Assembly (NCBI RefSeq): GCF_032062105.1
Contig: NW_026941516.1
Span: forward strand, 1-64,000
Direction: 5' to 3'
Length of the DNA: 64,000 bases
Origin: Saccostrea cucullata
Lineage: Eukaryota
Part shown: piece by piece, positions 53,301 to 56,300 of the stretch
Numbering within the stretch: the stretch's first letter is position 1
Layout of the letters: each line of letters starts with the position of its first letter
Notes under the pieces: generated by a model
What the model saw: only the letters and a program-made list of their open reading frames with translations
Database searches by the model: none
What the model was told of the DNA's origin: nothing
Program-made: the position numbers and the translations under genes

Positions 53301-56300
53301 CTACTGTACAAAACCTGCAAAGCAGTATGATTTCGTTAACCGAAAGAGTCAACACCATGGCGCGATCGCAAACTTCAATAACAGCGGCTGCAGGAAGCGC
53401 GGATCAATTACGCCAGTCGGGGGCTCAAACTACCAATCCACGAAATGACAATACACCTGTATCATGCGGAACTCCTCGAGAGACAAGCGAAACAGACTAC
53501 ACTCTCACAACGGCATGGGCTGATCAAGCATCACCAAGGACCATTGGAGTAAAAACCACGTATGGATATGCGGCGGAATCACTGCCTTACGTGGAGACAA
53601 TTGCACCGAACCTTCGGAAGCAGATTATAGAAGGTAAGGATGTCAATCTAGCAACCATCCTCATACCATACTACACCGGGCCGTCCGACGACAAAACTGA
53701 CAAAGAGAAAAAAGATCCCAGACTAAACAAAACATTGACAATCTCAGAGTTCATTCAAGCCTTTGGCATATATAAAAACACTATGTGTGGAGCGTTCCCC
53801 AGACGAAGACAAGAGTTGGACTTATATGAGAGAGACATTGTTGACATGGCCAACAGATATGGCGGCTCAGCTTTCTATGAATATCATAGACAGTTTAGCG
53901 CAAGGGCTGCAGCATACCTCAAATACCACAATATACCAGTTGACTGGTCAGTTCGCAATAACACTTTGTTTTGCAATATCTTCGCAAATGAAAAACCAAT
54001 CACCTGCACACTATGTAGAAGCGTTAGCCACACTGCTCCCTTCTGTCACCAAAACCTCGAGACAGGGGCCAAACCTTATTCTTACTCTCAGACATACCGA
54101 CAGTACTCTAATTTGAATTCCAATGATAGTTATGGCAGACCAAGACAATTTAAAGATGGCCTTGAAATATGCAACAACTTCAATGATATGGGGTGCACTC
54201 GCAAACGATGCAACAATCTACATGTTGTAAATCTTGCAAAAAACCGGGACATTCACAATCCGATTGCCTTTCAAAAAACGAGGTAAACCCCCGGGGGAAA
54301 TCACCAAAGCGGGGGAATCATTGAAAAATTGGACCATTACAACTCCTGTAAACATAGACAAGTTGGAAAAATTACTGCTTAACCACTCAGATAAACAAAC
54401 TGTAGACTATTTATTGAATGGGTTCAGATTTGGTTTCTACACAGGTTTTAGAACTTTACCCACAGAAACCTATGAATGCAGGAATCTACTGTCTTCTCGG
54501 AAACAACCAGAAATAACTTCCCAATTAATTCAAACAGAGTTACAAAAGGGGTTCATTTCCGGTCCATACCCATCCATGCCCTTCGACATATACAGAGTAA
54601 ATCCAATAGGGGTCGCAGAAGGAAAATATTCTAAAAAGAAAAGACTTATTGTCGATTTATCTGCTCCGCATAATGAAGATCATCATGCCAGTCTCAATTC
54701 CCTTATTGACAAAAGTGAATTTTCTTTGTCATATGTAACAATTGATCATGCAATAGACTTGATTAAAAAACTAGGAAAAAACAGTTGGATGTGTAAAGTA
54801 GACATTTCAGATGCATTTAAACTCATACCAATTCATCCTAGCCTATGGCCGTTTCATGGAATTAAATGGGATAATCAATACTATTACTTTACAAGGTTGG
54901 TGTTTGGTTCAAGAAGTAGCCCAAAAATTTTTGACACTCTTTCAACAATTCTCTGTTGGATTGCGCAAAATGAATTTGGCATTGACAATATCTTACATCT
55001 CCTTGATGACTTCCTAACAGTAGACCCTCCAGAATTTCCAGCAGAAAAAACAATGAACACTCTTACGACCATGTTTCAAATTCTGGGGATACCTCTAGCC
55101 GTCCACAAAAGTGTAGGCCCTTCACAGTGCTTAGAGTATTTAGGGATAGTTTTGGACAGTAATAAGATGGAAGCAAGACTTCCGACTGACAAACTACAGC
55201 GAATACTTGAAACAGTACATTCATTCTTGGACAGAAAGACATGTACTAAACGACAATTGCTAAGTCTATTGGGTCACCTAAATTTTGCCTGTCGGGTTGT
55301 ACGTCCAGGCCGTTCATTCGTGTCATATCTGATATCTTTATCTACAACAGTGTCGGAACTTCATCATCACGTGACAATTACTGCTGAATGTAGGTTAGAC
55401 TTGGGAATGTGGTACAAATTCTTATCTTCATGGAACGGTGTAGCCTTCTTCCTTGAAGATAATATAACAATAGCAGCAGATATGCATCTATATACAGATG
55501 CAACCAATTCTGCTTTTGGGGGATACTACGCGGGGAAGTGGTTCCAAGACGTTTTTCCATCAGACATGTTTCACAGTGGAGAAAAACCTTCTATGGCTTT
55601 TTATGAACTCTACCCCATTGTTATTGCATGTGTTATGTGGGGTCAAGAATGGTCAAGAAAAAGAATTCTCTTCCATTGTGACAATCTAGCTACAGTCGAA
55701 ATTATAAATAAAGGGCGTTCGAAAATGAAATCAATCATGAGGTTAATGCGAAAATTAACTTTCACAGCAGCAAGTTTTCATTTTACCGTTCATGCTAGAC
55801 ACATTCCAGGGAAACTAAATACTATAGCTGATGCTATTTCTCGTTTCCAGATGGACAAATTTCGCAAACTAGCTCCGGAGGCGGACATCCGAGCCACAGC
55901 CTGTCTTCCATACCACAAGATTACAATGTAGAAGAAATAAAGACTTTATGGAATGCAGCAATTAGCCAACAGACAGCAAGAGCATATTCCACGGGCATTC
56001 AACACCTTTTATCATTTGTGACTTTGTGTGGTATAGCAGTACCATTGGGTACTTTACCTGATGTAAATGAAGATGTTCTTATCAAATTTGTATCTTATTG
56101 TCATTACTCTTTAAGCTTATCATTTTCTTCCATTAAGCTGTATTTGGCTGGCATAAGATTTCATTATCTTAAAGCTGGACTCTGTAATCCTTTAAAGCAA
56201 CATGAAAGACTTGACTGCATTTTACGTGGCATTAAAAGACTTCAATCTAGTGTCTCAAAACCTAAAAGATTTCCTGTTACATATCAAATATTATGTCAAA

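Follow-up and report, generated by a model that had tools for sequence, protein, structure and literature searches.

The gag-pro junctions of MMTV and HTLV-1 use the slippery heptamer A AAA AAC, and the replicases of alphaviruses and plant viruses are expressed by type II stop-codon readthrough. Signals for -1 frameshifting at gag/pol are standard in retroviruses and LTR retrotransposons; pol lies in the -1 frame in 28 of 51 animal LTR retroelements, many of them with X XXY YYZ sites, and A_AAA_AAC ranks with the heptamers at which mammalian ribosomes shift most readily (PMC5009743). Neither "DIRS" nor "tyrosine recombinase" occurs in the opening 300,000 of the 449,034 characters of that source. 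The type II readthrough motif has been given as UGA-CUA or UGA-CGG (PMC3159437), and a gag-UGA-pol junction is described for the Candida element Tca2 (PMC2194720). Ngaro elements, which belong to the order DIRS, are defined by gag, RT/RNase H and tyrosine recombinase (YR) ORFs, by A-ORFs-B-A-B repeats and by having no methyltransferase (PMC3783388, PMC4157794). These two descriptions report overlapping ORFs, and we found no gag/pol recoding signal in them; for the RT/RH-YR overlap programmed frameshifts were proposed by Poulter and Butler (2015), as quoted in PMC13003380. More generally, we found neither a gag/pol slippery site nor a readthrough signal for a DIRS-order element in the passages searched from PMC3783388, PMC8547959, PMC6681497, PMC3266345, PMC9210276, PMC7192593, PMC4157794, PMC5633606, PMC2632668, PMC13003380 and bioRxiv 2021.04.08.439009; Poulter and Butler (2015) or Goodwin and Poulter (2004) may mention gag/pol recoding.

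Here we report a gag/pol junction of this retroelement group that qualifies as a real, conserved candidate -1 site of the canonical type, in a group for which we found none documented, and as one half of a frameshift/readthrough pair. The junction lies in the window, by which we mean the whole 64,000-nt stretch of Saccostrea cucullata DNA that was analysed (contig NW_026941516.1, positions 1 to 64,000). The element carrying it is an Ngaro-type tyrosine-recombinase retrotransposon of the order DIRS, assigned by its ORF and repeat layout against the published definitions, which it matches in ORF set, repeat order and the lack of a methyltransferase; it differs from the published descriptions in having a predicted gag/pol recoding signal.

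Three ORFs on the plus strand are flanked by split direct repeats in the order A1-ORFs-B1-A2-B2, with the internal pair downstream of YR. Repeat A1 (52668..52863, 196 nt) is 100% identical to A2 (57717..57912); between them lie the gag-like ORF1 (53003..54324, measured in the family's frame and including its ATG and stop), pol ORF2 with reverse transcriptase plus a domain resembling RNase H (54231..55931, -1 to gag with a 94-nt overlap), the tyrosine recombinase ORF3 (55832..56905, -1 to pol and with no Met in its first 156 codons) and B1 (57033..57540), and B2 (58161..58667) follows. The pol ORF matches RVT_1 (E 8e-11) and ORF3 matches Phage_integrase (E 4e-7); RNase H appears in Pfam matches that are all under the cut-offs (RVT_3, E 0.005; RT_RNaseH, E 0.14). 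The cysteine/histidine knuckles of Gag were recognised by eye, and a Pfam search of 53990-54223 gave no match. No methyltransferase was found after RNase H by Pfam on pol or on its last 193 aa, and pol ends ∼30 residues past the last RNase H motif. The same A1-ORFs-B1-A2-B2 layout was found in three other copies (L222, L224, L226), and at least the A pair in three more (L223, L225, L227). Two other assignments were rejected: a DIRS1-like identity, for which inverted terminal repeats, an internal complementary region and a methyltransferase are expected, as the bounding repeats are direct and there is no methyltransferase match, and a PAT-like identity, for which split direct repeats are present but the methyltransferase was not found. 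The nearest named relatives of Pol (56-65% identity) come from Pecten, Mytilus, Ylistrum and Saccostrea and are entered as unnamed or "uncharacterized" proteins, and no relative was found among viral contigs. Unlike retroviruses and LTR elements, this Ngaro element combines split direct repeats with a tyrosine recombinase, and we saw neither a protease nor a DDE integrase, env or LTRs in it.

The signal itself resembles retroviral and LTR-element gag-pol -1 sites, with an in-frame heptamer after a nucleocapsid-like knuckle, a spacer of 7-9 nt, a predicted GC stem and an ATG-less pol in the -1 frame. As the initial annotation had reported, the plus strand of the window holds the heptamer A AAA AAC (54273..54279; AAAAAAC in the sequence, read in the codons TCA AAA AAC), an 8-nt spacer, GAGGTAAA (54280..54287), and a predicted stimulatory hairpin (54288..54315) of six G-C pairs with a 16-nt loop, in which CCCCCG (54288-54293) pairs with CGGGGG (54310-54315). 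Its claim of an ATG-less pol in the -1 frame was borne out as well: the frame -1 to TCA AAA AAC is the pol ORF (54231-55931), which reads FKKRGKPPGE, is open across the site and lacks an ATG before 54576, by which point 82 codons of the conserved part have passed. In the minimum-energy prediction (-14.6 kcal/mol) the RNA folds into the named stem, whose pairs have probabilities of 0.99-1.0 in 121- and 221-nt contexts. Measured against its own base composition, it reaches z of -1.4 to -1.8 for short folds and weaker values for longer ones; 24 of 200 shuffled sequences were as strong, and when both strands and every frame are counted, 20 of the window's 1381 heptamers are followed by a fold of -12 kcal/mol or lower. 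Because the stem is no stronger than its composition and heptamer plus hairpin is common in the window, the single site is not beyond chance. It is the position of the heptamer across families, judged by comparing their sequences (see below), that is beyond chance.

The window's own copy is 1 base short near 54225. The base is present in all 8 other genomic copies that hold this stretch (L002-L005, L007, L009, L012, L013) and in contigs of 5 sequencing runs (X1, X2, X3, X5, X17), while a single raw read of X20 over ∼54225 lacks it; the missing base is either a mutation or an assembly error. The gag frame that had been "restored" in the initial annotation is thus the real one for the family. 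In sibling copies with the extra base, the last CX2CX4HX4C zinc knuckle of Gag (54226..54267 on the plus strand of the window, in the family's frame, from translations) is whole and TCA AAA AAC stands in the gag frame, so that a heptamer out of frame in intact copies, named beforehand as grounds for dropping the frameshift proposal, was not what we found in copies without the missing base. The in-frame reading holds for the siblings but not for the window's copy, whose gag stops early at 54284-54286, out of register; this copy cannot use the site and therefore would not make Pol by frameshifting. Among the 13 places of the window's family group that cover the junction, the heptamer is kept in 8 and lost or broken in 5 (L005, L006, L008, L010, L011), all of these being copies with stops or splits in pol.

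In intact members of the family, a minority of the ribosomes translating gag would slip back one base at A AAA AAC, right behind the final zinc knuckle, and from there read the ATG-less pol frame, yielding a Gag-Pol fusion. The tRNA-Lys and tRNA-Asn would re-pair one base upstream, with the ribosome held by the GC hairpin 8 nt downstream. The fusion would have ∼976 residues and run ...S-K-N-R-G-K-P-P... across the joint, compared with ∼440 residues for Gag stopping at 54322-54324, and the Pol:Gag ratio would be low. With no protease seen in the element, the fusion would presumably stay uncut. We estimate the probability that intact members of the window's family use -1 frameshifting at gag/pol at about 0.87.

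To place the site in a broader context we compared 110 junctions, made up of 52 loci of the same genome (30 + 22) and 58 of 78 loci from metagenome and genome contigs (the other 20 lacked upstream DNA or a match to the start of pol), and sorted them by the frame of the last knuckle relative to pol. In 27 of them pol lies in -1, in 66 gag and pol share a frame, one falls in the third frame and 16 gave no knuckle match. Inspected by eye, the 17 loci left unsorted comprised the window, three further -1 types (L020, L022, L031), three copies with deletions, nine junctions that have TGA-C in frame and a last one in which an additional base follows TGA. Each of the 27 -1 junctions contains exactly one in-frame X XXY YYZ heptamer in its gag/pol overlap (37-124 nt), which begins 2-11 nt past the first base of the last Cys codon; the other two frames of these overlaps hold 6 heptamers together. 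The suggestion that the slip site sits just after the zinc knuckle thus extends to every -1 junction compared, and the expected conservation of the heptamer in related families takes the form of two unrelated sequences encoding different residues, A AAA AAC in 24 junctions and C CCU UUA in 3. The background rate of in-frame heptamers, 50 in 18649 gag codon positions, amounts to 3-10% per overlap. Counted by family, an in-frame heptamer is present in 17 of 17 -1 families and in 2 of 36 same-frame families (at +2..+14), but the families share ancestry and the 17 are not 17 independent trials; RT identity among -1 families is 55-88%, with a median of 60% (14 families). A genome-wide scan for the junction pattern, which was drawn from the data itself and is not used as support, returned 28 distinct places, 18 of them at Ngaro junctions and 9 with no gag/pol match. 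Taken together, the geometry of the site, its register in sibling copies and the heptamer in 27 of 27 -1 junctions support the -1 frameshift first proposed for this locus.

The gag/pol overlap codes in two frames and can hold a sequence for protein reasons, and pol might be started independently (by an internal or near-cognate start or by re-initiation), with the heptamer kept only for S-K-N in gag and K-K in pol. An ATG does lie near the start of pol in some -1 families (at -18, -15, -3 and 0 codons in L027, L115, L120 and L189, respectively), and a distant YR group of the same genome has pol in +1 in 17 of 18 loci, with an upstream ATG in 11 of the 18. However, in the window's family 82 codons of the conserved region pass before an ATG occurs, and across 50 families the first ATG of pol is found anywhere between -18 and +243 codons, which speaks against a separate start. 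Furthermore, families with C CCU UUA encode other residues yet still conform to X XXY YYZ, and synonymous alternatives to the heptamer codons are never used: A AAA AAC sites always read TCA AAA AAC, while in these gags overall TCA makes up 23% of Ser, AAA 63% of Lys and AAC 42% of Asn codons. We regard an independent start as very unlikely. The distant group just mentioned (L069-L086 of G000; 34-40% identity over the query) has gag/pol overlaps of 35-430 nt in most loci and represents a third gag/pol arrangement in this genome.

The six A's at the site also raise the alternative that some transcripts gain a base by slippage of RNA polymerase on the run, in which case the RNA itself would carry the change of frame and the ribosome would not shift; slippage of this kind is known as an alternative to ribosomal frameshifting (PMC5009743). 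Yet three families use C CCU UUA, which has no long run, a hairpin 7-9 nt downstream suits a ribosome, and among the alignment rows listed, at low read depth, no indel was seen at 54273-54278. This explanation appears exceedingly improbable, and slippage of the ribosome remains the preferred reading.

The stem was assessed by folding the 40 nt that begin 5 nt behind the heptamer and ranking the result against windows of the same locus. A strong fold (top 1.5% of locus windows) was found in 8 of 18 -1 families, namely in all 6 of this genome and in L121 and L152; in these eight the stem starts 7-9 nt behind the heptamer and the stem sequences differ, that of L121 having its G-rich arm first. 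The 6 families of this genome carry, 7-8 nt past the heptamer, a GC stem of 6-8 bp, with folds that rank in the top 1.1% of windows of the locus. The remaining 10 of the 18 have an ordinary fold, and RNAalifold detected no consensus pair among 10 sequences of the largest weak-stem group. The conservation of the stem that had been anticipated therefore holds for the families of this genome and two others but not for these ten. No two-sided compensatory change was seen within alignable copies, and stems of different families do not align. A pseudoknot was considered for the window's family and rejected, because no second stem was found other than one that requires a first loop of zero length and a last loop of 27 nt; L021 and L034 could form an H-type second stem of 4-6 pairs, which is not shared by the window's family. 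Frameshifting could thus be real with the named hairpin not its stimulator, the heptamer acting alone or with another structure or a protein, a version compatible with the mechanism above except for its stem step. The ten families with no strong stem, the lack of a consensus fold and the H-type option in L021 and L034 lean this way; the GC stem at nearly constant distance in all six families of this genome leans against it, and for the window's family we consider it unlikely. The hairpin is a good candidate stimulator there, as modelled, and not a general feature. The weak-stem -1 sub-group (L114, L115, L118, L146, L159, L167, L185-L187, L189), which has no predicted stem, keeps a pattern GG.CA...AT.CC...TGA.ATA 7-45 nt after the heptamer, coding the Gag tail (Q)GQ(R/K)IP.LR-stop; this pattern may be a protein constraint or an unusual stimulator.

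The same-frame junctions present a different picture. TGA followed by C separates gag from pol in 64 of the 66; one of the other two has TAA-CTA and the last (L119) is a -1 type with an indel. By family, TGA-C is found at 36 of 36 same-frame junctions, compared with 3 of 37 stops that end pol and, for the gag stops of -1 families, 0 of 18, a bias that points to selection on recoding at the gag/pol junction. These sister families (not the window's element) resemble type II readthrough cases in their gag-UGA-C-pol arrangement in one frame, with CUA after UGA in 17 of the 36, and would reach Gag-Pol by reading through UGA-C; they differ from the type II cases in having no strong fold within 45 nt of the stop (0 of 36 families, none under a rank of 14%). 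Ngaro families thus likely make Pol by either of two retrovirus-style routes, -1 slippage or UGA-C readthrough. The -1 slippage put forward in the initial annotation thus belongs to a minority of families, and most related ones have an in-frame UGA-C.

A small intron across the junction, joining gag to pol, would offer yet another route. Three Mytilus edulis gene models (P0068-P0070) fuse gag and pol and skip the junction, and L139, with a gag end nearly identical to theirs, continues with in-frame TGA-CTA. On the other side, P0069 and P0070 are unnamed predicted models and omit a T-P-V/I-N stretch with which conserved pol sequence begins; in 8 sequencing runs we saw no joint around 54230-54330, and contigs cross the junction unspliced (X3, 52841-54560; X17, 54099-55468); and an intron would leave both the heptamer and the UGA-C bias unexplained. 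We find an intron at this place extremely unlikely. Because the near-identical gag end of L139 is followed by TGA-CTA, the fused Mytilus models may instead hide a readthrough site, and gene models that bridge the junction by an intron (P0069, P0070) may be wrong.

The history of the two junction types was approached through RT trees of 50 families and 5 distant outgroup rows (a family needed at least 250 open residues to be included). The 14 -1 families group in a single branch (support 95) that lies within the readthrough families. This branch also holds 3 readthrough families, which adjoin the window's family (support 89-91), and a single origin of the -1 group with no reversal was not rejected (AU p 0.44). 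UGA-C readthrough is the likely older state, on a root that rests on long branches. Close relatives with readthrough or -1 slippage at the same junction would form a natural series, useful for studying how one signal becomes the other, and a third retroelement order would join those predicted to set their Gag:Pol ratio by recoding. A still broader scenario, to which we give about even odds, is that a single transcript serves animal Ngaro elements for a full retrovirus-like programme, in which recoding gives Gag-Pol and splicing gives Gag-recombinase beside Gag itself, with a switchable gag/pol module; UGA-C readthrough would be ancestral, one lineage would have moved to -1 slippage (first at A AAA AAC and later at C CCU UUA), the closest relatives of the window may have reverted, and one frameshift sub-lineage would do with no recognisable RNA stimulator.

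The recombinase frame, which likewise starts with no ATG, would be reached by a splice that the initial annotation had also predicted, producing a Gag(1-210)-YR fusion from spliced RNA (53633 to 55851). A predicted 5' splice site, GTAAGG after GAAG (53634..53639, plus strand, phase 1 after gag codon 210), and a predicted 3' splice site with a pyrimidine run and CAG (55840..55850, plus strand, in phase with the recombinase frame) are placed so that splicing after 53633, with the acceptor ending at 55850, would fuse gag codon 210 to the recombinase frame in phase. The codons at both sites are biased: the donor Gly is encoded by GGT in 29 of 41 families versus 300 of 1034 Gly codons elsewhere (the other 12 of the 41 have no GT at the donor column), and CAG makes up 42 of 43 Gln codons in the acceptor zone versus 397 of 808 in pol. 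One contig of X5, whose status as RNA is a guess, shows the splice joint with GT..AG ends, with a short side of 28 letters and at a likeness setting prone to false joints; the joint is absent among the joints listed in 7 other runs, and the further joints in the runs lack canonical ends and were taken to reflect deletions or other copies. The poly(A) raw reads (X18-X20) cover the ORFs at a depth of 0-2 (junction mean 0-2), with no splice joint among those listed, and at this depth are uninformative on expression or splicing. With statistical support from the splice-site codons and one weak contig joint, we consider the Gag-recombinase splice likely to be real. Where Poulter and Butler (2015; quoted in PMC13003380) proposed programmed frameshifts, at RT/RH-YR, our data speak for a splice and put the frameshift at gag/pol, and no slippery heptamer was evident by eye at the pol/YR overlap. 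Exact candidate sites can thus be given for both ATG-less frames, pol and recombinase, in many DIRS-order families. The pol stop (55929-55931 in the window) and homologous stops overlap a Leu or Val codon of the recombinase frame in most families, by eye at about the point where recombinase similarity begins.

Several further observations concern the element and its copies. The N-terminus of Gag (53072-53160 in the window) gives weak SAP/LEM/Ish1-like matches (E 0.01-0.14, under cut-offs). The B repeats (window 57174-59012) contain 16 copies of a short unit with CCTG(C/T)(C/T)GGGCTCCCCCCAGG, able to fold back on itself, and a third, partial B copy follows B2 at 58668-58998. A 156-nt tandem repeat directly after the element (59003-59770) has a related unit that interrupts the heptamer of copy L006/L014. 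In the copy L222 (G000:C3157), gag and pol are open and all four repeats are kept, with most of the recombinase ORF gone by internal deletion, and in L039, L040 and L060 an open pol continues into unrelated sequence with no recombinase ORF, these copies being cut off or deleted near the predicted acceptor. Ngaro elements were also found on contigs assigned to bacterial MAGs that carry the labels Sedimenticola and Candidatus Thiodiazotropha (L185-L191); they are probably animal host DNA in those bins. Finally, short ORFs on the minus strand of the window at ∼47900-51500 and 60000-63400 flank the element and by eye resemble exons of one large host gene, in an intron of which the element would lie antisense.
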